Positions 8,525 through 42,955 of a DNA stretch of 64,000 nucleotides are shown here, one piece after another. Position numbers and translations under genes: made by a program. Location: assembly GCA_048938105.1 (NCBI GenBank), contig JBHLMN010000012.1, positions 1 through 64,000 on the forward strand, given 5' to 3'. The stretch's first letter is position 1. Every line of letters begins with the position of its first letter. Under the pieces are notes generated by a model. It worked only from the letters and a program-made list of their open reading frames with translations. It had not been told where the DNA came from and did not search any database. This DNA is from Promethearchaeota archaeon. GTDB lineage: Archaea; Asgardarchaeota; Heimdallarchaeia; Hodarchaeales; Hodarchaeaceae.

Positions 8525-8626
8525 AATAACTAAATCTTTCCTCTCTCGCCTCCTTCTCCCACGCTTCAAAGTTTTCCATATATTCTTCTGCTAATTGTCT
8601 TGCATTACTCACTGGCCTTTTTTTCA
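8525..8626 (-). pseudogene. Remnant of the PIN-toxin/antitoxin module (paralogue of 42082-42823) with the PIN gene deleted
   Basis: Reads MKKRPVSNARQLAEEYMENFEAWEKEAREER vs MSNARKLAEEYMENFEAWEKEAKEER at 42330; upstream DNA resembles 42820-42940; boundaries approximate. Confidence 0.75.
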
Positions 8627-8731
8627 TTTCAACCCAATGGTATTTACAATTTTAAGAATTTATAAAGGTATATTGTAATCTTACATCTCAATAAAGAATA
8701 ATAAGCATTTTTGATGGATAATTTGGGTTCA

Positions 8732-8759
8732 ATGTCACAAAAGGCTGGATTAGCACTTA
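8732..8759 (-). repeat. dif-like site (class I)
   Basis: atgtcacaaaa-ggctgg-attagcactta. Confidence 0.85.
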
Positions 8760-18970: not shown

Positions 18971-18998
18971 ATGTCATCAAACCAGCCCTCTATAATTG
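18971..18998 (+). repeat. dif-like site (class II)
   Basis: atgtcatcaaa-ccagcc-ctctataattg. Confidence 0.85.
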
Positions 18999-19224
18999 AA
19001 ATAAGTTATTTGACAATTTTTTTTACTTCTATCTTAAAATGAAATTGAATAAAAATTATGATAGTATTGAGATGGTATGAGATGACCGAGTTCTATTCCT
19101 ATTGGTCGAAAATTTGCACTAATTTTAGGACCTATCTTAATCTTCCTGTTATTTCTTCCATTTAACGATATAGGTAGCTTTTCTTGGTTGAGAAGTTCAT
19201 AATTATCTACATAGAACATGAATT

Positions 19225-20109
19225 TTAATGCTGAATTCTGTCAATGAATAAATTGATGAATTTTCGTATAACTTTCCGCATTACATTAGATCTTGTAATG
19301 ATTCCAGCAAAAGGAGGGGACAATTTATAATATAATTTAATTATTGAATTCCCAAAGGAAGTTTTGCCTAATGATTCATCACGCCAGCCTCGTAAAATAT
19401 CCAGCTTAAGATGAAGTGGATCGCCATATGCAGCAGTTGCAATAAAGCATTTACCGATAATAGGGTTTATAATAACAGGCCTAGCATACAATCTGAGCCT
19501 TCCATAACGTCTAATTTCGAGAAAAAGAAGAAATGGCTCACCGTCTACATTAACACCGCTTTTTGCAACCCTAAGGGGAACAACAACTGGGGAAATTTCA
19601 GATTCAAGATCAAATGTGAACCTGTGCCCCATACGATCACCTGGCCACTCAGTATTGTCTCTTTCAGCTCCTTGGACGTATTGTTCATGTTCAATCCACG
19701 CTCCTTGCACAGGTTCCCAATTCGGCTCAACGTAATCTTGCCATAAAGGTGAATGCTCTTTTGTAGGAAAAGTATCATCACCAGCTGGGAATCTCACTGT
19801 GTAATTACCGCGTTCTCCGTGGCCAAGATATTCTGGAGGATTTAGGATGGAATATGGGTCTGCAACTGATGCTTTAGGTTTTAACAAGTGAAGCTCTAGC
19901 TTATTTGGGATCTCATCAGAATTTTGCCTATTCAAATTCCATTTAATTACTACATTTCCCCAATCGACCTCTGTTTCTGTAGGCGGATACGAAGGAAGGG
20001 TAGGATTCCCTTCAGTAATATTAATCGGATTTACCCTCCCATGATCAACACTATAGATAATTTCAGACTCAATCGTTGTAAAATCCAAATTTCTCACCAT
20101 TCTACTCAA
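19225..20109 (-). CDS. Protein with C-terminal CFI-box-CTERM domain
   Basis: GKCFIATAAYG...LRGWRD...YYKLSPPFA. Confidence 0.8.
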   Translation of the reverse strand: MSRMVRNLDFTTIESEIIYSVDHGRVNPINITEGNPTLPSYPPTETEVDWGNVVIKWNLNRQNSDEIPNKLELHLLKPKASVADPYSILNPPEYLGHGERGNYTVRFPAGDDTFPTKEHSPLWQDYVEPNWEPVQGAWIEHEQYVQGAERDNTEWPGDRMGHRFTFDLESEISPVVVPLRVAKSGVNVDGEPFLLFLEIRRYGRLRLYARPVIINPIIGKCFIATAAYGDPLHLKLDILRGWRDESLGKTSFGNSIIKLYYKLSPPFAGIITRSNVMRKVIRKFINLFIDRIQH

Positions 20110-20469
20110 TGACTAAAATAATTTCCCTCTATTTCTAGAAACTTAATTTCGAAACTAAATTATTTCTATCTAAATTATTACTTATAAAGTTTGACTTGAA
20201 ATGAAAAGTGAATTCTGCTCCAAAAAATAGTATTTAGTTTGAGTCACAAATTCTAACTTCTGAAAAATCATTAGGATTATAAATAATTCTTAATATACTG
20301 CGTCTGGTGTTTTACTACTCGAAAGCTTAATTATCCTTGGAATATTAGTTGGATTCGTTAAGTTAAATGAAGGGATCTCTAGAATCGAAATACTAAATCT
20401 ACCAACCGATCAGACTTTTAGGACGTTTCAAACAAAAAATGTATATGAAGTAAGTGGTCTTAATCTGCA

Positions 20470-20721
20470 ATGTTTACATCTCTTGTGCCCTTAAAGGACT
20501 TATTGGATGAACCAAAAGAGAAAGATAGGTATATGTTTGTGTGGTTTATTTTAGGAGAATTAAGAAAAAGTTTAATATTCCCATTTCCTTATTTCACGAG
20601 TAATGCTGTTTTTGAAAGAAAAAATGATGCGTTAGAGAAAATCATTGTCATTGAAAATGCTAGATCAATATTACAGGGCTTGTGTCCTCATTGTAATGGT
20701 AATTATTCAAAAAACAGGTAG
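20470..20721 (+). CDS. Short hypothetical protein or fragment (CxxC)
   Basis: 83-aa ORF containing CPHC. Confidence 0.3.
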   Translation: MFTSLVPLKDLLDEPKEKDRYMFVWFILGELRKSLIFPFPYFTSNAVFERKNDALEKIIVIENARSILQGLCPHCNGNYSKNR

Positions 20722-20846
20722 ATCAGTTTTCAGAGGGAGAAAGTATTACTTGTAATTATTGCAATCATTCAATTAAAGCGGAATGGGTATCAATGAATCC
20801 CTAATTTGGATGACATGGGTTAGATTGTTTAACATCTAGAAATTTT

Positions 20847-20874
20847 CCGTCGCAAAAGGCTGGATTAACACCCA
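20847..20874 (-). repeat. dif-like site (class I)
   Basis: ccgtcgcaaaa-ggctgg-attaacaccca. Confidence 0.9.
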
Positions 20875-21026
20875 ACTTATAGAAAACCAGTTATCTTAAG
20901 TACTTCACTATTTATCTTAAGTACTTCACGTATCTTTGGGAAGAATAAACAGCAGTATTCAAGAAGAAAAGTATGAAAACGGCAGTTTTCCTTTTTGTAC
21001 AATTTCGTAATGTCATCAAACCAGCC
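20858..21026. mobile_element. Internally deleted copy of the GNAT module 25513-27165
   Basis: 20864-20910 matches 25519-25565 and 20928-21026 matches 27066-27165 with few differences. Confidence 0.9.
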
Positions 21027-21037
21027 TTCTTCATCTA
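21010..21037 (+). repeat. dif-like site (class II)
   Basis: atgtcatcaaa-ccagcc-ttcttcatcta. Confidence 0.9.
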
Positions 21038-21212
21038 AAGCAGTTGGTATCTAAAACTTTTGAAAATTAAATTACAGTCAAAAAAAAATCATGTGACAAA
21101 ACTAGAAAAATATTCAAATCTAAAATCCTTGATTGGGAATAAGTACTAGTAAAAATACATACCTTTAAAATATACATATTCACGGATTCCAATCAACCCT
21201 CATTAACAAAGG

Positions 21213-21518
21213 ATGAAAGAAGTGTTAACAAGAAAGAAAATCATAGATTTTCTGGAAGCTGAAATTCCATTTCTCATGGAGGCATATCATGTTAATACAA
21301 TTGGCTTATTTGGATCTTATGCTCGTGAGGAACAGAGTGAAACAAGCGATTTAGATTTGCTTGTTGAATTTACGAAACCAATCAGTTATTTTAGTCTTTT
21401 CAAGTTAGAAGATTATTTATCAGATAAACTCGGCGTTCATGTCTAAATTGTTACTCCAAGTGGATTAAAAGAATTAATAAAACCAAAAATAATGAGGGAT
21501 ATAGTCTATGTCAAGTAG
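21213..21518 (+). pseudogene. MNT (minimal nucleotidyltransferase) antitoxin with internal stop
   Basis: GLFGSYAREEQSETSDLDLLVEF; TAA at 21444 is followed in frame by the typical MNT tail IVTPSGLKELIKPKIMRDIVYVK. Confidence 0.85.
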
Positions 21519-22584
21519 GACTCCTAAATTATTATTATGGATGATTCTGATTATTCCTATAAGTGTCATTTCTGGTGATACACCCTCTCTTGATTTAGAA
21601 TTGACTAAGGTTGGTGAGATACAAACAGGTGGTGTTGCTGTGGATATTCAGGTTATAGATGACCTGCTATATGTTGCAGATCACCTAGGTTTGTTGATTT
21701 ACAATATTTCTGCCCCTGATTATCCTCAAAAAGTAGGACAATATTTAGATGGTGGAACAGGACATGGAATTCATATAGATGGAAGTTACGCATTCATTGC
21801 TGACCTTGTCGATGGCTTAGAAGTGTATGATATTTGTACCCCAACAAGTCCCCAAAAAATCGGAAGTTATTTCGATAAGAGAATGGTTGTAGATGTATTT
21901 GTTCAAGGGTCATTATGTTATGCTTCTGTACACGGTACAGAATTTGCTGTACTTGATGTTAGTAATCCAGGGAACATTACAAGAATCGGACACTATGATG
22001 ATATAGTAGTTGGGTATAGCATCTATTGTATTAACAATATTGCATTCGTAGCCGATTATGATGCTGGTTTACTAATTCTAGATATTAGTAATGCCAGCAA
22101 CCCTCATTTAATAGGAAAATTTAACGATGGAGACATTATAAGGGCTATTGATGTCGAAGATAACATTGTATTCGCCTCATGTGCAACTGATGGAGGATTT
22201 AAAACCATAAATGTTACTGAGCCATCAAATCCTGTACTACTAGGAGAGTATCAAAACATTAGTTTCGGGATCGGAGTCGATAAAAAGGAGGAATATGCCT
22301 TTGTCTGTGACTATGATAATGGATTGAGAATTTTGGATGTTGATAACCCAGTTAATCCCACCTTAAGTGGATCATACGAAGGGGAAAAGTTCTTTCATGT
22401 ACATGTAGTCAACGAATATGTTTATGTATTACAAAGTGGTGGAATTATTTTAATACTCCAGATAAATAAAAATACTTCCTCTACTTCTGATTCTAGTACA
22501 CCTGGGTATGAACTAGTTTATTTTCTTTTAATTTTTGGGCTAATATCTCTATTACACAAGAATAAGCATAGGAAAAACAAATAG
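21508..22584 (+). CDS. LVIVD-repeat beta-propeller surface protein
   Basis: Repeats such as AFVADYDAGLLILDISNASNP; signal peptide; S/T linker + PGY + TM + basic tail. Confidence 0.9.
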   Translation: MSSRTPKLLLWMILIIPISVISGDTPSLDLELTKVGEIQTGGVAVDIQVIDDLLYVADHLGLLIYNISAPDYPQKVGQYLDGGTGHGIHIDGSYAFIADLVDGLEVYDICTPTSPQKIGSYFDKRMVVDVFVQGSLCYASVHGTEFAVLDVSNPGNITRIGHYDDIVVGYSIYCINNIAFVADYDAGLLILDISNASNPHLIGKFNDGDIIRAIDVEDNIVFASCATDGGFKTINVTEPSNPVLLGEYQNISFGIGVDKKEEYAFVCDYDNGLRILDVDNPVNPTLSGSYEGEKFFHVHVVNEYVYVLQSGGIILILQINKNTSSTSDSSTPGYELVYFLLIFGLISLLHKNKHRKNK

Positions 22585-22735
22585 CTAGAATATCACAACT
22601 GTTCTTCATTTAAGACAGAGGATACTTCCCGCAGCACTACTAAGATATATACTCTCCAAAAAAAAGATTGACTTTTCATGTTATTATTGTCTCAATAAAA
22701 ATAAGAGTTTTGTACTATGAGCTAATATATTTTTA

Positions 22736-22763
22736 ATTTCGTAAAAGACTGGTTTAGAATTCA
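22736..22763 (-). repeat. dif-like site (class I)
   Basis: atttcgtaaaa-gactgg-tttagaattca. Confidence 0.7.
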
Positions 22764-24124: not shown

Positions 24125-24152
24125 ATGTCGCCAAAGGCTGATTAGCAGATTT
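24125..24152 (-). repeat. dif-like site (class I, 1-nt core deletion)
   Basis: atgtcgccaaa-ggctg(-)-attagcagat. Confidence 0.75.
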
Positions 24153-24340
24153 CTGTTGTTCACAAATCACCAAAGGGAAGTAAAAACTTGAAGAGTGTTG
24201 ATGACATTCTGTCAATGATAAAAACTCTAGCTAAAATGGGAATAGATCATGCAATCTTTAACATGCGCAATCCATTAGCTGAACAAGAGCCTCTTACGAT
24301 CTTTCGTGATGAAATTATCCCCATCGCTCAGGATTTGTAG
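24146..24340 (+). pseudogene. 3' fragment of a gene, resembling the C-terminus of an LLM-class flavin/F420 oxidoreductase
   Basis: Open frame ...SVDDILSMIKTLAKMGIDHAIFNM...EPLTIFRDEIIPIAQDL* begins at the site; 5' part of the gene is missing. Confidence 0.5.
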
Positions 24341-24523
24341 ATATTATAAGAGAACTTCCTTCCTCGGAATCCATCAAATTAGGCCAGCTTCCTAAACATC
24401 ATATTGTTGTGATATGCCAACAAAAGAATCTCAATAAAGAATTAATAAACTCTGTAAATAGAGCTTATAGTGTTGAAGCTAAATAAACCGACAAGATGGT
24501 TTTATTATTAATCAAATCTGTTT

Positions 24524-24551
24524 ATGTCGTCAAACCAGCCTAAGACAAACG
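24524..24551 (+). repeat. dif-like site (class II)
   Basis: atgtcgtcaaa-ccagcc-taagacaaacg. Confidence 0.9.
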
Positions 24552-24574
24552 TCGTAATATTCTTGATTATAAAA

Positions 24575-24955
24575 TCACAAACCAAATCGATAAATTTTTC
24601 CAGACTGAAGAATACTACATAAAAACTTGATATCATCTGAAGGCGTGCCCTTAAAAGGACTTTCAATAGCATTTTCTTGATGTCGTGGATGAGTATGATG
24701 TGGTTTAGAAGTTACTTCCCATTTGTCATCAAAATTATCGAATCTGATACGATCTAGCTTCTGGGAGGAAAACATCACCACATAGGAATATTGTCCATAA
24801 TTATTATAGCGAATGAAGACTGTCACTCCGCTTTTCAATTTTATTCCTAATTTGCCAGTATCTTCGTCTAGATCAATCTCGGAAATAAACCCTCGTAATT
24901 CTTTGAGAATAATATCATATGCTTTAAGAATTAGTTCCTCAGATAACAAGATCAT
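24575..24955 (-). CDS. DUF6516/TumE-like putative toxin
   Basis: YSY...IRFDN...T-PHHxH motif. Confidence 0.7.
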   Translation of the reverse strand: MILLSEELILKAYDIILKELRGFISEIDLDEDTGKLGIKLKSGVTVFIRYNNYGQYSYVVMFSSQKLDRIRFDNFDDKWEVTSKPHHTHPRHQENAIESPFKGTPSDDIKFLCSILQSGKIYRFGL

Positions 24956-25198
24956 TCACTGTAAGCCAAGTAACAGTTTTTCTATTTCATTTCGTTTATC
25001 ACGTAAATTCTGTAAATCTATTGCATCGTCTTCAGCTTCAGGTAAGGTTCCAGTCTTTGTGCCTTTGATTAATTCGTCAATTGAATTAATATTCCATTTC
25101 CTGAGGATTTTATCAATTTTTTCAGTCAATACACGGAGTTTTGTTTCAATTAAATCTCGTGCTGTTTCAGAATCTAAAGTAATGGACATCTTACTCAT
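24956..25198 (-). CDS. Putative antitoxin of the DUF6516 toxin
   Basis: 80-aa acidic helical protein abutting the toxin gene. Confidence 0.6.
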   Translation of the reverse strand: MSKMSITLDSETARDLIETKLRVLTEKIDKILRKWNINSIDELIKGTKTGTLPEAEDDAIDLQNLRDKRNEIEKLLLGLQ

Positions 25199-25501
25199 TC
25201 CTACAATAGAAACATTTATTTTAAAATGTTATCAATATTCAGATTTAAATTTGAATAAAATTTTTTTTAAACCACTTGTTCAGATAAGTGATAATATTAG
25301 TTAAAAAGATAAAGCTATGGTTAGAATTACACTTTATATTGCCTGAAGAAGACCTTGAAGAGTTAGAATTACATGAGCTTAAACAAATAAGGAAAAAAAT
25401 GGAAGAGGGAGAACGAGCTCGCTGGAAAAAGGAATGAGTGATCAATTACTCAATTTTCTTACATTTTTTATTCTTTTGTGTTTTATAAGATATCCTTTCT
25501 A

Positions 25502-25529
25502 ATATCGTAAAAGGCTGGATTAACACCCA
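25502..25529 (-). repeat. dif-like site (class I)
   Basis: atatcgtaaaa-ggctgg-attaacaccca. Confidence 0.9.
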
Positions 25530-26129
25530 ACTTATAGAAAACCAGTTATCTTAAATACTTCACTATTCTTCTTGCTTCTACAATATTCCACGAATTTTTG
25601 TGGATTATTTGAATAATTCTTTAGTTCTCCTCCCAATATAGCATGGTCTACGATCACTGATCTGTTTGTTTTCCAAAAGAAAGAATAAAAAATGAATGAT
25701 TTTGAAGTGATTTCATGAATTTCGTCAAAATTCATAAAATTGTTGCTGTAGATCAGATAAAGTATTTTAATTTATCTTAAAATCATTTGGTGTTTAATTT
25801 ACTACAAGTGACAATATGAGCATAAACAATACCAAGAAGTTGTACAATCTAAGGATGTAGAGATATTCCAGATTGATATAAAAGTTCTTTCTTATTGATG
25901 TTAATAATAAATTGTTTTCGGAAAGAACGATTGAATCAGCTGTTGTATTTAAACAGCTTGATCCATGAGATATTGATTTGAAATTAAATTCATTTCATAT
26001 CTTCTGCATAACAAGGATAAGTATGAGATTTTCGGTGTTTTCTCTTATTGAAACCATTAGATCAATCAAAAAATAAGTTTTTAAACCTTATAAATCTCCC
26101 TATAATCCAAATTATTCAAACTTGGTGTT

Positions 26130-27086
26130 GTGAAATTGGAAATACATGTGAATGAATGGGAAAAAGTCCAACTTGACAAAACTGCTAGGCTAATTTTTGA
26201 TTCCAGGCTTGGAGCTTTAGGTGAAATAAACACCGTTGTTATAAGACTAAAATCATTACGAATGGAATTATCTCCGAATCCTGTGTATATCATTCAAGCC
26301 GTTGAGAAAGAAAAGCTGGTTGGTTGGTTAATGCTCCATCTAATGAATGGTTCAACAGTTGAATTAAACCCTGGTTCACTTCTAAAGGGACACCCTGTAA
26401 TTTCACCAGAGATGAATTTTCATAAAATAAGTTCTAGATTGATAGAAGAAGCTATAAATTGGACTAAAAAGGAAAAATTCAAAAAAATTGACCTCACTAT
26501 TCCGATAGAAGAAGAAGAAGCCAAGAACAGGGATTTTCTAGATTTTTACGGAACTTATGGATTCAAGAAGACATACTTCTGCATGCAATGTGAACTTTTT
26601 GAGCAGAAGATTGATCAAGTTATGATTCCTGAAGATTTTGAGATCAAACAACTTAAAATGCTTAACCATGAAGACATATACAGATGTTATTATGATGCGT
26701 TCAATACTGGTCAATCTCCTTTCTTTTTTGAGCAAAGCGAAACAGAAAAAAGGGATTATTTTGACACTTTACTCACGGAAATCACTTTAAATGAAGAAGC
26801 ATCTCTAGCAATTCTGAAAGGTAATCAGCTCGTAGGTTTTACACTTGTCGCTCCCATATTCGGTGAAACCAATAAACATCTAAATTGCATATGTATTCGT
26901 CCAGATTTCAGAAAAAAAGGATTAGGAAGAAATCTTCTTGCTGCTACAATGAAGAAGGTTGTTAAACAAGGAAATAGAACAATGACCTTATACACTGATG
27001 TATTTAATACGCGGGGAATAGATCTTTATCAAAAAAATGGATTTAAAGAAGGAGGTGGGACTATTACGTATCTTTGGGAAGAATAA
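26130..27086 (+). CDS. Tandem GNAT acetyltransferase
   Basis: CIRPDFRKKGLGRNLL and N..GIDLYQKNGF; degenerate N-terminal GNAT. Confidence 0.9.
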   Translation: MKLEIHVNEWEKVQLDKTARLIFDSRLGALGEINTVVIRLKSLRMELSPNPVYIIQAVEKEKLVGWLMLHLMNGSTVELNPGSLLKGHPVISPEMNFHKISSRLIEEAINWTKKEKFKKIDLTIPIEEEEAKNRDFLDFYGTYGFKKTYFCMQCELFEQKIDQVMIPEDFEIKQLKMLNHEDIYRCYYDAFNTGQSPFFFEQSETEKRDYFDTLLTEITLNEEASLAILKGNQLVGFTLVAPIFGETNKHLNCICIRPDFRKKGLGRNLLAATMKKVVKQGNRTMTLYTDVFNTRGIDLYQKNGFKEGGGTITYLWEE

Positions 27087-27148
27087 ACAGCAGTATTCAA
27101 GAAGAAAAGGTATGAAAACGGCTGTTTTCCTTTTTGTACAATTTCGTA

Positions 27149-27176
27149 ATGTCGTCAAACCAGCCTTCAGTACCGA
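27149..27176 (+). repeat. dif-like site (class II)
   Basis: atgtcgtcaaa-ccagcc-ttcagtaccga. Confidence 0.9.
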
Positions 27177-27265
27177 AAACAATTAAACTATAAAAACTAA
27201 TCAGATAACCAAGTATCGTTATTACAATTCTAACATTCTTTCTAATCAGGTGCAATCGAGCTTTC

Positions 27266-28528
27266 CTATAAACCAATTTTCAATGTAAAGAAACGTTCTC
27301 TGCGTTTTGTGTAATTGAAAACCGTCTTATAAAAATCAAAGAGCTCTTCATAATTTCGAAAGTTATATCTCTCTTTAATATCCTGAAATGGCTGCCTAGC
27401 GACCTATTTCTGAAATTTAGGACGATTTACATCTGGACAGACAATGAAGAATCTAGCATCTACAATGATTGTGTTATAGAGTCTAAGTAATGCATCTCGC
27501 ATATTTCCCCTGTGTTCAACCTCAAAGAAGAAGAATGGTGGCACAGATTTATACCAAATAGCATCAATAGCCCGAATATCTGTGATACTAGACAACTTTT
27601 CTGGTACTTCTCTTAATGTAGCGATTTCCCTTAATTGGATGTTGAAAGCAGTTTTGGAAGGATCAGCCACATAAGTATTATAACCTAATAGATTGCCTAT
27701 TTTTACAATGTAATAAATTGCTTCGCAATGATCTTGAGGTAGCTCTTCTTCTGGACTTAAAGACGATTCCTCATCTTCTTTTGTTGGTTCTGGTTCATCT
27801 AAGGTTTTTTCAGGTTCATCTTTAGCAAACTTTGCATACTCTCCCAATCGTTTATCACACATCCAATGACAAAACATATCGAACAATGTATATTCATTAA
27901 ACAAATCGCAGTTGATTTCATCAATCATATGCTTTATTATTTCAATATTTCTGCGATAATTTGATAATGAATTGTCAATGGCCTTCTTTTCAAGAATATA
28001 ATTGACTGTGTCAATATTTTTGGAATTAATTAAGAAAAATTTAGGATTTAAATGGAAAAAAGTTGGTGTCAACATTCCCGATTTGAATCCTCTTGATAAT
28101 TCCTTATTTTTTTCGAATTTTTCTAAAATCTCCCAGTTATCTTTATCAATTAGCTCAAACACAAGTTCAAAGATAGCTTTAGCAACTAAAGTTCAATTCT
28201 CTGGTTTTTGCCAATTTTCCTTTTCAAACCAAGATTTCACATCTTTCGTGATTGCAGACGATACACTAATCCTACATCTGTTTTCACGATTGTGATTAGT
28301 ATTACTATAAGGTAGTAGCTTTTTTAGAACATCTTCAGTTATATCTTCTCCCTTTAACTTCATATTTTTAATTTGATCCCAATATTCTTTCACTAGCTGG
28401 CTTTCTTCACGATGCTTAACTAAATGGTCTTTTCCTTTTTCTTTTTGGAGATATAACATCTCAAACTCGGAAATATAAGCATTTATTAACTCCAATCTTT
28501 CAGCAGACAACATCATTGAGGTCCCCAC
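27266..28528 (-). pseudogene. Restriction-endonuclease-like gene (C-terminal PD-(D/E)XK) broken by two in-frame stops
   Basis: ORFs 28193..28528 and 27404..28162 share a frame (KPEN*TLVAKAIFEL); the frame continues after FQK* (VARQPFQDIKERYNF...); IDAIW...FEVEH motif. Confidence 0.75.
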
Positions 28529-28670
28529 TATCCTTTGAGATTTATTTCTTAAAAGGGTGAGTATTATCTTATGATCTGCAAAATTAACCTTTTCATAACA
28601 TTATTCTGAGAGGTGATAAGCAAATTTATACACAAATTATTTACCTAATAACTATTAATCAATGTATATA

Positions 28671-28698
28671 ATGTCGTCTATGGCTGGTTTAATAAAAT
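28671..28698 (-). repeat. dif-like site (class I variant)
   Basis: atgtcgtctat-ggctgg-tttaataaaat. Confidence 0.8.
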
Positions 28699-28732: not shown

Positions 28733-30457
28733 TCATTGGAAATTAACCTTCATGAACTCATGAGGGAAATCAAGTGCATTGAAGAATAAAGGGGTTCCAG
28801 AGAAAGATAAAGGAGAAATTGGACCAATCGTCATGAAAGGAAATTCTCGTTTTCCAAGAGCACTTTGTGGATCTTTAAACATCTGATAGAGTTTCAAGGC
28901 TTCGTTTTGACCTCCTATGATTTCCAAGAGCGCCTGTCTTTCTATACCCCAGCTAAGACCAAATCCAAACAGATAAATACGGATTTGTTCAACTATTCGT
29001 CTATCTAAGCTAGATAGAGTCTGACTAATAAACATCCAACCAAGTCCATACTTTCTAGTAGTTCGGACACCATCAATGAATCTTGCTTTTAGTAATTCTA
29101 AGTCTTCTATTGGTGATTTTTCTCGTGGGGCTAGTCGGTGAGCTTCATCGATTACTACTAAGGTGTTCAGGAGATTCCCTGCTTTGTATGATTCCTCTGC
29201 AATGTTAGTTAGCTGTTTAACAAATTCTCCAATTACGATGAATTTTATTGTCTCATTCCAAAATAAATCATCAGGAATTGCCATTTCTGATAGGTCAATG
29301 ATGCTAATATTCCCCTTTTCTTCTTGAATCTCCTTTACAAGTTTCGAAATTATAATTGAGTATTCTTTTCCTTCATATTTAAACAGATTACAGACTTTGT
29401 TCCATTTTTCTTTTATTTCAGCTTTATTATCTTCACTAAAAGAATCACTAACCCGATTTCTCAAATCTTGGGAAGAATAAATTCTTGCGATGATTGATTC
29501 TTTTTTCATCTCAAACCAGAATCTTTCAAAAGCCCCGTCTTTGTAGGTTTCCCATGTTTTAATCGATTTTGGATTTTCACATTTTAGAATTCGAACTAAT
29601 TCATTCGCAGCTTGCATTTGATTTGTTTCATGGTGGATCCCAAGATCTTTAAAGAAATCAGAATAAATCATAATCTTTTTAAATAGATCCCAACCGCTAA
29701 GTACAAGATTATGTAAACTAACAAATTTAACCTTTTTGTTGAAGGTCTGTGTTATTAAAGATCGAATTTGAGGATTACTATTGATTTTTTCAGAGAATTC
29801 TCCTTGAGGATCCAACACAAATAACCCCATCTCTGAATGTCGTGCGTAAGCAAGCATAATCATCAGGGAGAGATACGATTTTCCTGAACCAGTTTTACCA
29901 AATACTCCTAAGTGATAAGCTTCATTTGCTCCCTGTTCTCCCTTACCAAAATGTTTGAACCACATAGGCATTTTAATGTCAGTACCATAAGATTTTCCTA
30001 AATAGAATAGTTGATCACTCAAATGTGCAAATAATGAATTCATTATGTCCTCATTAAACAATTTTACTGGTGTACCAGTTGGGGGAATAGTACCAAGGAT
30101 ACTTGGTATAATTTCTTGCGACTCTGACGAAAACACAGAACTAACAGTCATCTGGGCTAGGTGAACATCTTGCTTTTCAGTAATGGGAGCAATTGTACCT
30201 TTCTGCCGTATAAGTCCGCGAATAGTTGGATCTTCGGACCAAGTGTTTCTCATTGTAATTTCTGTAAACTGACTTAACGCAAAGTGCTCATTCTCGTTTT
30301 GAAGATAGTTAAAAATTCCTAAATTTCCAATGAGTCTTTCATTAATAGCTGTTTCTAAAATATCTACATTTATTCGCCCTGTTGAGGAGGGAGAACCAAT
30401 AACACCAACTGATTTAGCGCTGTTGACTATGTCTTTTAATTTTTTATTATTTATCAT
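28733..30457 (-). CDS. herA: HerA/FtsK-family ATPase (DUF87) with N-terminal HAS-barrel-like region
   Basis: HLGVFGKTGSGKS, LDPQGEF, VVIDEAHRL and RKYGLG..ISQ. Confidence 0.88.
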   Translation of the reverse strand: MINNKKLKDIVNSAKSVGVIGSPSSTGRINVDILETAINERLIGNLGIFNYLQNENEHFALSQFTEITMRNTWSEDPTIRGLIRQKGTIAPITEKQDVHLAQMTVSSVFSSESQEIIPSILGTIPPTGTPVKLFNEDIMNSLFAHLSDQLFYLGKSYGTDIKMPMWFKHFGKGEQGANEAYHLGVFGKTGSGKSYLSLMIMLAYARHSEMGLFVLDPQGEFSEKINSNPQIRSLITQTFNKKVKFVSLHNLVLSGWDLFKKIMIYSDFFKDLGIHHETNQMQAANELVRILKCENPKSIKTWETYKDGAFERFWFEMKKESIIARIYSSQDLRNRVSDSFSEDNKAEIKEKWNKVCNLFKYEGKEYSIIISKLVKEIQEEKGNISIIDLSEMAIPDDLFWNETIKFIVIGEFVKQLTNIAEESYKAGNLLNTLVVIDEAHRLAPREKSPIEDLELLKARFIDGVRTTRKYGLGWMFISQTLSSLDRRIVEQIRIYLFGFGLSWGIERQALLEIIGGQNEALKLYQMFKDPQSALGKREFPFMTIGPISPLSFSGTPLFFNALDFPHEFMKVNFQ

Positions 30458-30463
30458 AGATTT

Positions 30464-31591
30464 TCACCCCCATTTAGAACGATATCCGTGCATGGCAAGA
30501 TAAACGTTATTTACATCTCCGTCCCATTGTCTAGTCATGTTTTGAGTTGCAGCTTTACGCAAAGCAGGCAAAGCTACTCTTAAATGCTTAACCATTCTAT
30601 CTGCAAGGTATAATGGAAATGGTTCGAACATTCCAGGAGCATCACACTGTAATTTCAGTGTTTGAAACAAAAGAGATAGTTGATTTTGATCAGTTACGAT
30701 AGGTTTCATTATTTCTAATCGTATTACAGGAAAAGATCTTGAAGGTCTATAATAGAAAACAAAGGAATCATTTAATAATCTTTCAATATCATGGAAAATC
30801 TTACCAGTACTATTTATGGGGATTGCTACATCCTGAAGATCCATTTTATATGGAAAAATCAGCTCTCCTCCTTCTAATACGAATGATAATAAGCCTCGGT
30901 CTTCATATCTGAGCATATTAAATTCTTTACAGATTTCCTTCTTCGTTGTATACTTTGGGACGCCCACATAGGACTTTCCTCCATTATATTCTAGTAATTT
31001 CTTGTAATTTTTAATTGCACTAGGTAGTTGATCAAGAAATTCCTGTTTGAGAATCTCAGGAACGTTATCTAAAGCATTCAAGGCCTTTTTGAAATGAACC
31101 ACTGGTGTGCTTAACGAACCATCGAAAAAAACGATATTATGTGGAGCTTTACTAGCAAGTTCGAGTTCCATACACATCATAAGAGCTCCAGCAACTTGGC
31201 GAGTGGAATCACTGTGACTAATGGAATAGATTTTTGAAAGATGGTGTGGACGTTCCCATTCAGCTGTTGATTTAGGGGGGATTAATCCCTCCACTGCAAC
31301 CCCTGCTACCGCAAGAACATCAACTGATAACAGATTTTCAATAATGAAAGAACCATCAACTCCACAAGTAGTAGGAAGCTCTAGATCATTAGGAAAGTCA
31401 GTATCTTTCATTAAGTAATTTTTTTCCAGCAATTTTTCTCTCAGATTATCTTTCTTGTTAATTATATTTCCAAAAGAAGTAGAAAGCTCATGACTCAGAC
31501 CTGTGCATTGGTTTAACATTTCTTTAACTAACGATTGGGGTAGTTCCGTAAATGGATACGCAACTGAACTACCTAAGCTTAAAATTTCCAC
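30464..31591 (-). CDS. nurA: NurA-family nuclease
   Basis: CGVDGS, MELELA, FFDGSL, GVPK and EPFPLYLADRMVK; upstream of herA. Confidence 0.88.
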   Translation of the reverse strand: MEILSLGSSVAYPFTELPQSLVKEMLNQCTGLSHELSTSFGNIINKKDNLREKLLEKNYLMKDTDFPNDLELPTTCGVDGSFIIENLLSVDVLAVAGVAVEGLIPPKSTAEWERPHHLSKIYSISHSDSTRQVAGALMMCMELELASKAPHNIVFFDGSLSTPVVHFKKALNALDNVPEILKQEFLDQLPSAIKNYKKLLEYNGGKSYVGVPKYTTKKEICKEFNMLRYEDRGLLSFVLEGGELIFPYKMDLQDVAIPINSTGKIFHDIERLLNDSFVFYYRPSRSFPVIRLEIMKPIVTDQNQLSLLFQTLKLQCDAPGMFEPFPLYLADRMVKHLRVALPALRKAATQNMTRQWDGDVNNVYLAMHGYRSKWG

Positions 31592-31873: not shown

Positions 31874-32347
31874 TTATAATCCCTGTAAAAGCCACTCTTT
31901 CAATACATCAAATATAGGATCAATAGCCTGTAAACGATGTAAAAACTGTTTAAAATTCTGGATCCGTTCAACATGGGGAATATCATGTAATTGAACAGGA
32001 TCTGTAGGAAGTCCATAAGTTGTTATATCCACATTATGTTTTTGAGATCGAGAAAGAATCCATGCTTCAATGTAATTTGGAATAATGATCAATTTTATAT
32101 TTTCTGAATCTTGACGACGCATTAAGCGAAGATCTTCATTATTATCAATCTGTACATAATTCCTTAGATCCTTTGGTTGTGTACTTGTAGGATCTTCATC
32201 AACCATTCCGAGTGTACCAAAACCTTTCCGAAGACTATTTATGACTCTTCCTTTACCCGATTCATGACGAATCGAGGTAGCTGGAATTTCAAGAGATTGA
32301 ACAAAATAGAAATCGAGATCACATTCAACTACGATCACCCAAATCAC
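31874..32347 (-). CDS. Small TOPRIM/DUF4435-like partner of the AAA ATPase
   Basis: VVECDLD, GMVDED and IEAWIL acidic motifs; 4-nt overlap with the ATPase gene. Confidence 0.55.
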   Translation of the reverse strand: MIWVIVVECDLDFYFVQSLEIPATSIRHESGKGRVINSLRKGFGTLGMVDEDPTSTQPKDLRNYVQIDNNEDLRLMRRQDSENIKLIIIPNYIEAWILSRSQKHNVDITTYGLPTDPVQLHDIPHVERIQNFKQFLHRLQAIDPIFDVLKEWLLQGL

Positions 32348-33351
32348 ATCTTATAGAATGAGCTGATATTAAAGAATGGATCTTTTTCTGAATCTAAAAT
32401 GTCCTCAACTTCAGATGATGACAAAGATGTAAGTTTAGTTTGATAATCTTCAAAATAGGTAACAAAAGTGTTTGTAGTAGCTTTAGGTGCCTTAGCAAGA
32501 ATTGAAGTCAAGAAATATGGATTATGGGTAGCAATAAAGTACTGATTTCGTGTGTCTAGGGCGATTTTTTCTGCAAGAAGTTTTGTATAATAAGGAAACA
32601 CATGTCCCTCTGGTTCTTCGAACACTAGAATAGAATCTTTATTTGAATTGATCGCAAACATATAGAAGATCATATGTCTTAATGTATTTGATGTGACGAT
32701 ATAGGGATATAAAATAATAGTATCATTAACTTGTTTCTGGATTTCAAAATTAAGGTCTTGTGGTTTGAAAACAAGACTAAAACCGAAGTCTTTAACCATT
32801 TGTTGTATTAATGATCTGTGGGCATTATTACCATAAATCACAGAGAACAAATTAGATCCGTTTGGTGGTAGTAAAAACTCCCTCATTTTACTTTGGAATT
32901 GAATGAGATTTTTGAAACGATAGAATTTTATTGCTTTGAGTAAAGGAAGAATTTCAGTTATAAAATGTCCTGTGGAACTTCCACCTGCATATTCCCCGTT
33001 ATGATTAAACCTAGCTTCACCTTTTGAGCTAGACTCCTGAAGAATAAAAACATCATATTCATATCGCAAAGAGAATGTAATATGGTTGATTCGCATTATA
33101 ATTGAATTTTCGGTTAAATCATCATAAAAAAGATTAGATATGTTTTGAAATCGTACAAAATCACTTAATATTGAAGGATCATAACCCCATGCACTAAGGA
33201 GACCTAAAACTTCTAATAAATTAGATTTACCTGAATTAGGTTCACCTATGAGGAGGTTAATTCGCTGGGGTTTCATTTGTAATTCTTTTATTGATTTGAA
33301 ATTAGAAATAGCCAGATTCTTGATCATCATGAGGAAACCTCCTTTGTGCAA
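32344..33351 (-). CDS. ABC/AAA ATPase (AAA_15/AAA_21, OLD/AbiEii-like)
   Basis: ISNFKSI, LIGEPNSGKSNLLE, VFEEPEGH and IATHNPY. Confidence 0.9.
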   Translation of the reverse strand: MHKGGFLMMIKNLAISNFKSIKELQMKPQRINLLIGEPNSGKSNLLEVLGLLSAWGYDPSILSDFVRFQNISNLFYDDLTENSIIMRINHITFSLRYEYDVFILQESSSKGEARFNHNGEYAGGSSTGHFITEILPLLKAIKFYRFKNLIQFQSKMREFLLPPNGSNLFSVIYGNNAHRSLIQQMVKDFGFSLVFKPQDLNFEIQKQVNDTIILYPYIVTSNTLRHMIFYMFAINSNKDSILVFEEPEGHVFPYYTKLLAEKIALDTRNQYFIATHNPYFLTSILAKAPKATTNTFVTYFEDYQTKLTSLSSSEVEDILDSEKDPFFNISSFYKM

Positions 33352-42081: not shown

Positions 42082-42330
42082 CTACCCTCTAGAGACTCCT
42101 AGCTCATCTAACAAGTTAACAAAGTCCAAAACACTCATCTCAGCAATGGAAGCGGCACCTTCATAAAGTCGAAATTCAACAAATAATTTAATTGCCTCAA
42201 TCTGCTTTTTAGTACATTTATTCTTAATTAAATCCCAATTAACTGATTTTCGCCTTTCTTCTTTCGCCTCCTTCTCCCAAGCTTCAAAGTTTTCCATATA
42301 TTCTTCTGCCAATTTTCTTGCATTACTCAT
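42082..42330 (-). CDS. UPF0175-like antitoxin
   Basis: C-terminal AIKLF...GAASIAEMSVLDFVNLLDELGV HTH; overlaps the PIN gene. Confidence 0.65.
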   Translation of the reverse strand: MSNARKLAEEYMENFEAWEKEAKEERRKSVNWDLIKNKCTKKQIEAIKLFVEFRLYEGAASIAEMSVLDFVNLLDELGVSRG

Positions 42331-42823
42331 GATTACCATACCTTTGTTTTATACGAAAAAGATCTTTGGTTGAGTAAGTGCCAAGGAGTTTATCAAAAAA
42401 ATCTATTTTAATCTTACCCAATTCTAATAATCGAGTAAAGAAATAAGTACCTCTGAATATTTTGACTTCGGAATATTCTTGATGATGTTTTCGTATATAC
42501 CAGGGGGCAAAATTATCACTAATAACGAGGAAATATCCCCGCGATAGAGACAGAACTAATGTTTCAATTTCACTAACATGTTTTCCAGCATATTGAGAGG
42601 AAAATTCTTCATGTAATACATTGAATCTTTCTCTTTCAGCTGTTGTCAATTCTTCTTTCGTCATACAATTCAATTTCTCTAAATCACGATGAAATTGAAA
42701 AGATTCCTTCCATACTTCTGGAGAAATTAATATTTCATCAAAAACATCACAAAGATACTTTATAACTTCCAATCTCTTTAGATTAACTAGAAAAGAAGTA
42801 TCTAGCACCGTTTTTTCTTTCAT
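42323..42823 (-). CDS. PIN-domain toxin (DUF3368-like)
   Basis: VLDTSFL, ISPEVWKE, SEIETLVL and ISDN. Confidence 0.8.
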   Translation of the reverse strand: MKEKTVLDTSFLVNLKRLEVIKYLCDVFDEILISPEVWKESFQFHRDLEKLNCMTKEELTTAERERFNVLHEEFSSQYAGKHVSEIETLVLSLSRGYFLVISDNFAPWYIRKHHQEYSEVKIFRGTYFFTRLLELGKIKIDFFDKLLGTYSTKDLFRIKQRYGNHE

Positions 42824-42927
42824 TTCAACCTAAGGGAATTGTAAGATTTGAGAATTTATAAAGATATGTGGTTATCTTATGTTACAATTTAGATTTGTTG
42901 AAGTTTTTGGTGAATAATTTTGAACTA

Positions 42928-42955
42928 ATGTCGTAAAAGGTTGATTTGCCACATA
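42928..42955 (-). repeat. dif-like site (both arms fairly close to consensus)
   Basis: atgtcgtaaaa-ggttga-tttgccacata. Confidence 0.8.

Follow-up and report, generated by a model that had tools for sequence, protein, structure and literature searches.

A Full-Length Acetyltransferase Module and Its Emptied Copy

The window, i.e., the whole 64,000-nucleotide stretch of DNA that was analyzed, contains a full-length gene module at positions 25505 to 27168 (plus strand), whose only gene encodes a GNAT acetyltransferase and is preceded by approximately 0.6 kb of upstream sequence. The gene (26130 to 27086, plus strand) encodes a protein of 318 amino acids with a GNAT domain at residues 195 to 307. 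No specific subfamily model reached its cutoff with this protein, and its N-terminal half had no domain match. Exact-protein look-ups of the window GNAT, a 77-amino-acid nucleotidyltransferase, and a 294-amino-acid left neighbor returned no record, and no RNA family of Rfam was matched in the window.

A shorter version of the module is present at 20850 to 21029. This 180-base stretch corresponds to the full module (25505 to 27168) with an inner 1498 bp (25568 to 27065) removed and is confirmed as the emptied shell of the 1.66-kb acetyltransferase gene module. The original prediction had described the segment between the sites at 20847 and 21010 as a copy of the GNAT module lacking about 1.5 kb, and both an ungapped comparison and BLAST bore this out. 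In the left retained block (20850 to 20912, plus strand), 61 of 63 bases are identical to 25505 to 25567 by the same two comparisons; one mismatch falls in the site arm (20853) and the other inside the module (20900). The right retained block (20928 to 21029, plus strand) matches 27066 to 27168 with two mismatches and one single-base indel, the latter being an extra G at 27109 in the long copy. These figures are compatible with the earlier estimates of 1 mismatch over the left 47 bp and about 3 differences over the right 100 bp or so (102 bp as measured here). Within the 5.85-Mb genome to which the window belongs, the two blocks were recovered with BLAST E values of 1e-41 and 6e-23, and no third copy of the module was detected in that genome by BLAST.

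Similarity between the two copies ends abruptly on either side. Their left flanks are unrelated immediately to the left of the TCG of the site (20850 and 25505), and their right flanks part 3 bases past the CCAGCC core. Likewise, the adjoining modules showed no mutual similarity in self-BLAST comparisons, either on the left (18988 to 20850 versus 24541 to 25505) or on the right (21027 to 22739 versus 27166 to 28674), as had been anticipated in the claims that similarity decays outside the cores and that the flanking modules differ. Besides the GNAT module pair, a self-BLAST comparison of the window revealed only one other dispersed repeat.

The segment missing from the short copy (25568 to 27065, plus strand) has the hexamer ACTATT at both edges (25562 to 25567 and 27060 to 27065), in agreement with the microhomology that had been proposed for the deletion. 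At the joint itself (20891 to 20929, plus strand), an 18-base unit is present twice (20891 to 20908 and 20912 to 20929) with TAT in between; this local duplication, also part of the original prediction, can be read directly from the sequence. From this arrangement, the joint is taken to be the scar of a templated deletion, either of the slippage type or by template switching. As the right retained block still carries the last 7 codons and the stop codon of the GNAT gene, along with a T-rich terminator-like stretch, the difference between the copies arose by deletion from a full module rather than by a gene entering an empty module.

Architecture of the Bounding Sites

Both copies are bounded by a pair of short sites. 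The left site of the short copy (20847 to 20874, plus strand) belongs to the class with a strong left arm and has the core GGCTGG (20858 to 20863) followed by the right arm ATTAACACC. Its arm scores 9 of 11, and its core and right arm are identical to those of the left-class site of the full module (25502 to 25529, plus strand). The right site of the short copy (21010 to 21037, plus strand) has the same strong arm, here with a private G-to-A change at 21019, next to the inverted core CCAGCC (21021 to 21026), and its far side is unconserved. The right site of the full module (27149 to 27176, plus strand) again combines the strong arm with the core CCAGCC (27160 to 27165).

The motifs of the two site classes had 14 and 7 matches in the window, compared with 0.43 and 0.04 expected. 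When the sites are oriented so that the core reads GGCTGG, left-class sites show a strong arm of 11 bases on the left (consensus, ATGTCGYAAAA) and, on the right, an arm of moderate conservation (ATTARCACC). In right-class sites, the left side is not conserved, and the strong arm, on the right, is the reverse complement of that left-class arm. Read on the plus strand, both classes run from the arm to the core, with GGCTGG as the core of the left class and CCAGCC as that of the right class. The left class fits an 11-6-11 layout of 28 bp; the right class shows one conserved arm only. The two classes alternate between 18974 and 42931, with the single exception of an extra, degenerate left-class site at 24128, and from 8.7 to 43 kb the strong arm lies on the same strand side at every site, with only the core flipping.

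All of the sites in the window are intergenic, and the variable position of the core would be the second of a codon (GGC, GAC, GTC); on these two grounds, a reading of the motif as coding sequence was rejected. Sites of different modules share nothing past their 28 bases, and the two GNAT copies therefore have module sequence, and not just a site, in common. Hairpin potential was absent from 90-base windows around 14 sites when both strands were folded with DNA parameters (mean z score of -0.03 relative to shuffled sequences). No site combining two strong arms with this core was found in the genome of the window (G000) within 2 mismatches. On another contig of the same genome (G000:C39:217882-270548), eleven left-class sites all point in one direction and lie 0.6 to 13 kb apart, unlike the alternating array of the window.

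The inverted ends of the module could also be those of a terminal-inverted-repeat transposon, the short copy then being a miniature nonautonomous derivative. The module does end with an inverted repeat of 8 to 11 bases (AAGGCTGG, then A/T and TT), and the short copy retains the ends only, as miniature elements do. However, target-site duplications are lacking, since every copy has different bases flanking its two ends, and neither the module nor its neighbors encode a transposase domain. Furthermore, the conserved arm is not placed alike relative to the repeat at the two ends (outside at one, inside at the other), and the same sites bound unrelated neighboring units on both sides. A transposon origin is therefore scarcely credible.

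The Same Module amid Different Neighbors

A protein search led to a GNAT protein of 98% identity, and the members of its cluster led to three outside contigs that carry the full-length module at 98.4 to 98.7% identity with other neighbors. The module occupies positions 122 to 1780 of L019 (JGI 3300041075; window 25506 to 27165; 98.7% identity), positions 1496 to 3155 of L020 (NCBI GCA_048886065.1; window 25505 to 27166; 98.4% identity), and positions 722 to 2365 of L018 (Logan SRR30758828; window 25505 to 27150; 98.4% identity), with the match running to the contig end in the latter two. The similarity begins at 25505/6 and ends at 27165/6 in L019 and L020; L018 halts at its own contig end (27150). 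Outside the module, L019 carries a Ras/Roc GTPase gene and L020 carries a hydrolase gene and a TetR gene. Nothing in the outside-module DNA of the three contigs matched the neighbors of the module in the window, and almost nothing matched the genome of the window. As L018 and L020 have a common left flank, they are counted as one lineage; both derive from the study that also yielded the source sample, and the outside contexts number two rather than three.

The module is thus known from four contexts (two in the window and two outside lineages) with a single pair of boundaries (25505/6 and 27165/6), with the reservation that L018 and L020 reach the contig end at the right. Over these contexts, similarity starts at the left site and stops either at the last base of the right core or 3 bases past it. 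The left arm differs by context (TCGT, TCGC, and CCGT), whereas the sequence from the core inward stays constant with the module; at the right end, the arm moves with the module and the sequence past the core does not. As the arm varies by context and the core-inward sequence is constant, the crossover would fall in or beside the core at both ends. The original prediction held that the sites delimit a unit that moves whole and that then decayed at this locus, and the recovery of the full module with the same boundaries amid different neighbors in L018, L019, and L020 (98.4 to 98.7% identity) supports this claim. Because the same module, with the same ends, has different neighbors in other organisms, the view that two short recombination sites bound movable gene units is supported. 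A single unit is seen four times amid different neighbors, its two ends unchanged, and one of the four is a decayed shell.

Alternatively, the sites could be mere conserved intergenic repeats (protein-binding or transcription signals), and the boundaries could result from homologous recombination or gene conversion acting on short identity. Arm and core together do provide 14 to 25 bases of near-identity at every junction, and no recombination intermediate was seen. However, patches this short are poor substrates for homologous exchange, and the breaks fall within a few bases of the 6-base core in every context. Moreover, inverted arms, an asymmetric core, and the combination of constant arms with variable cores constitute the anatomy of a tyrosine-recombinase site and not that of a promoter or terminator. 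We consider this alternative unlikely.

The intact module was not found in a DNA search of 40 representative related genomes. This search returned only the GNAT gene, at 73% identity and without sites nearby, in two of them (G012 and G017) and site-only matches elsewhere. A scan of metagenome contigs with the GNAT protein yielded only distant GNATs of 22 to 30% identity.

Relationship and History of the Copies

Pairwise divergence among the long copy, L019, and L018/L020 is 1.2 to 1.5%, with 13, 8, and 13 private changes, respectively. In the 165 bases that it retains, the short copy lacks all 3 states private to the long copy as well as both of those private to L018/L020, and its one own change relative to the compared lineages is in the right arm. 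Judged by these positions, the short copy is a fourth lineage, near the root of the module lineages. As it carries none of the three private states of the long copy, a recent duplication within this genome is excluded. The earlier statement that the module had been "copied or re-acquired" therefore stands only in part: it may have been re-acquired or anciently duplicated, but the short copy did not arise recently from the resident long copy, with which it has 0 of 3 private changes in common. These patterns would be best explained if the module was acquired separately, or duplicated long ago, and the short copy then underwent a slippage-type deletion. In addition, a 711-base contig from run X6, a mangrove metagenome, joins position 27165 (the right core) to sequence resembling 21189 to 21231, which is part of the right neighbor of the short copy. 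About 167 bases of the contig are unaccounted for, compared with 162 expected. This contig is a hint that the locus now occupied by the short copy formerly held a full module; if it is colinear with 21027 to 21231, the decay would have taken place in situ.

As the genome is a metagenome-assembled genome with 7% contamination, the short copy could in principle be an assembly artifact, i.e., a mis-join at repeated sites. Contigs from the probable source run stop in the shared blocks (20883, 20942, 25525, and 27095), and among those listed none bridges the short copy. However, these stops fall where a k-mer assembler must break, at an exact repeat of 43 to 46 bases, and depth is present across 20886 to 21216 in the preassembled contigs of the probable source run. 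A mis-join also cannot create the private features of the short copy (the duplicated 18-mer, the G at 20900, and the A at 21019), and three positions at which the short copy differs from the long copy match the outside copies. A mis-join is thus very unlikely, although read-level proof of the short copy is missing and the preassembled contigs neither confirm nor contradict its junction.

Distribution of the Sites and Candidate Recombinases

Of 20 other genomes of the genus, 17 contained the left-class site; it was not detected in any of 19 genomes from other genera of the class, and the backwards control gave no matches. Sites in which both arms are strong, with a wide variety of cores, were found in 19 of the 21 genomes of the genus. 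Throughout the genus, the layout is one of two inverted-repeat arms around an asymmetric 6-base core, the arms being constant and the cores variable. A scan of viral contigs for the left site returned one match in 2.9 million contigs, which is approximately the level expected by chance.

A site in another genus genome (L050; G017:C82:264-289) has both strong arms around the core CCAGCC, the form expected from recombination between a left-class and a right-class site. Its flanks have no homologue in G000, and no inversion product can be demonstrated from it.

Sites with both arms and the core CAAGAC are present at G009:C1:3452204, G003:C157:4376, G013:C30:3876, and G002:C94:8223 and are syntenic in G009 and G003. 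The CAAGAC site is a better candidate for the true dif of the genus than are the sites of the window. The latter are many, clustered, and variable across the genus and do not meet the criterion of one syntenic site per chromosome that characterizes archaeal Xer/dif. In the genome of the window, the flanks of the CAAGAC site lie approximately 4.4 kb further apart (G000:C36:39816-46633), only a one-armed site (45312) is left, and no clean left junction is discernible.

No recombinase gene is present in the window, and only three tyrosine-recombinase genes (PF00589) were found in its genome. One of them, on C14, scores above the cutoff of the archaeal XerA model (283 bits; cutoff, 220), and its closest relative is the XerA of P. 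abyssi (4a8e). A second intact Xer-like gene (C56:201270-202136) encodes a protein of 289 amino acids that scores 119 bits on the XerA model, and the third gene, on C45, has an internal stop. Among tyrosine recombinases, XerA alone is found throughout the genus, and no other enzyme has a distribution matching that of the sites; the role of XerA is an inference from this co-occurrence, without activity data. No integron integrase (IntI) was identified in the genome, as the best score was 173 bits (cutoff, 265) and the match was XerA itself.

The same module system might instead be run by a dedicated integrase, namely, the Xer-like paralogue on C56, the broken C45 gene, or one that was not assembled. 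The presence of a second intact Xer-like gene and of a third with an internal stop in G000 is in keeping with such an enzyme. However, no integrase gene lies within or beside the window array, and proteins closely related to the one encoded on C56 were detected in just 4 of the 20 other genomes of the genus (70% in G012; 42% in G002, G008, and G017), compared with 17 to 19 for the sites. We therefore regard a dedicated integrase as doubtful.

Proposed Route of Module Exchange

We favor, with a probability of approximately 0.75, the reading that the short copy is an internally deleted version of a discrete module from a pool that is shared across the genus, whose members are exchanged by site-specific recombination at dif-like sites, and that one copy then slipped. 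What was observed directly is that a copy exists with precise boundaries, that the module stands in four contexts, that two site classes nearly alternate, that the sites are spread across the genus, and that neither hairpins nor an integron integrase is present; this reading starts from these observations.

In the proposed mechanism, a site would consist of a conserved 11-base recombinase-binding arm beside a 6-base crossover core, and like-typed sites with the same core would recombine. As the ends of a module carry reverse-complement cores, recombination between them would result in inversion only and not in excision as a circle. A module would be placed or replaced by two crossovers, one per like-typed site, with integration or cointegrate formation at one site as the first step and resolution at the other as the second. 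Such a two-crossover route has been proposed for single dif modules in Acinetobacter (PMC13141974). The genome would have received the GNAT module twice, or duplicated it long ago, and one copy would have lost its inner 1.5 kb via replication slippage or a microhomology event that left both sites intact. That the strong arm keeps to one strand side whatever the direction of the core suggests that the decisive strand exchange is carried out by the monomer bound there. It is inferred only, from the sites and the gene content, that a tyrosine recombinase makes the breaks, that the host XerA is that enzyme, and that the route has two steps. No recombination product, whether circle or inversion, was seen directly, and the single recognizable arm of the right class is unusual for a Xer-type site and counts against this explanation.

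As a tentative extension that merits consideration, the genus may run a natural cassette exchange in which XerA acts on two one-armed site classes with reverse-complement cores. Perhaps only the strong-arm strand would be exchanged, with replication finishing the reaction, and two-step swaps, between genomes, of modules that cannot excise would build chromosomal defense and accessory islands without an element-borne recombinase.

Comparison with Known Systems

The closest analogue is provided by the plasmid dif (pdif) modules of Acinetobacter, which depend on XerC/XerD (PMC13141974, PMC6449649). In both cases, short sites of the 11-6-11 type, a layout that only the left class clearly fits here, bound small modules of accessory genes, including toxin-antitoxin modules and modules without an open reading frame, and partners are chosen (here by inference) by identical 6-base spacers. 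Likewise, the same module is found between the same sites in different contexts, a criterion met by the GNAT module; successive sites are inverted, such that a single module cannot excise and two crossovers are needed; and no recombinase is borne by the element. However, pdif modules reside on Rep_3 plasmids, whereas the window is archaeal and probably chromosomal (205-kb contig), and a single Xer protein, XerA, is present here instead of two. Furthermore, the two site classes are not mirror images, one of them having a single recognizable arm, and the same sites form same-direction arrays elsewhere in the genome (C39). As the strong arm lies on the same strand side at every site, there are no C and D modules, and the C/D alternation of pdif is not met.

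Integron cassettes, including those of archaeal integrons (PMC9668308), also form promoter-poor arrays of single or few genes that are bounded by recombination sites and shared between genomes, and empty or decayed cassettes occur among them. In contrast to integrons, no IntI is present (173 bits versus a cutoff of 265), the 28-base sites are of the duplex type and lack hairpin potential, unlike the folded attC sites of 55 to 140 bases, and orientation alternates in the window array. The archaeal integron paper concerns attC and IntI (PMC9668308), both of which are absent here. The modules resemble IMEX (PMC5357621) in lacking an integrase of their own, in using a dif-type site, and in having hybrid sites with one well-conserved arm. 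However, an IMEX is a single element at the one dif of a chromosome, whereas the sites described here number in the dozens, have several different cores, and form arrays of unrelated modules.

In the literature, no published account of dif-like modules in archaea was found. If XerA runs the system, the modules would be an archaeal, chromosomal counterpart of the Acinetobacter dif modules and would explain how Asgard archaea assemble and reshuffle defense islands. The modules between such sites in the window include TIR, viperin, HerA-NurA, and toxin-antitoxin modules.

Neighboring Modules in the Window

The unit to the right of the short copy (21011 to 21545) has relatives of 84 to 89% identity at G000:C43:8385-8912 and G020:C429:2002-2541, which in each place start at a right-class site beside unrelated DNA. 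This multicopy segment holds the gene for the 77-amino-acid minimal nucleotidyltransferase, and the similarity stops near the start of an LVIVD-repeat gene and not at a site.

A second gutted module, of the toxin-antitoxin type, accounts for the other dispersed repeat of the window. Positions 8536 to 8611 correspond to 42254 to 42329 (93% identity) and positions 8618 to 8747 to 42814 to 42943 (72% identity). Approximately 480 bases, comprising the region of a PIN-like gene, are missing from the short version (8536 to 8747), and both versions (8536 to 8747 and 42254 to 42943) end at a left-class site.

The degenerate left-class site at 24128 has the core GGCTGA, and the bases that follow match a module start at G000:C5:1515. 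The adjacent 24142 to 24527 looks like a small gene-less module that may have fused to its neighbor. Immediately to the left of the GNAT module lies a module with a toxin-antitoxin pair (24575 to 25198, minus strand), which consists of a TumE-family toxin gene and a small upstream partner of the MJ0235 family. Further along the array, genes encoding a HerA-like ATPase and a NurA-like nuclease (28733 to 31591, minus strand) form one module between the sites at 28674 and 31782, which is followed by an AAA_15/AAA_21 ATPase module at 31874 to 33351.
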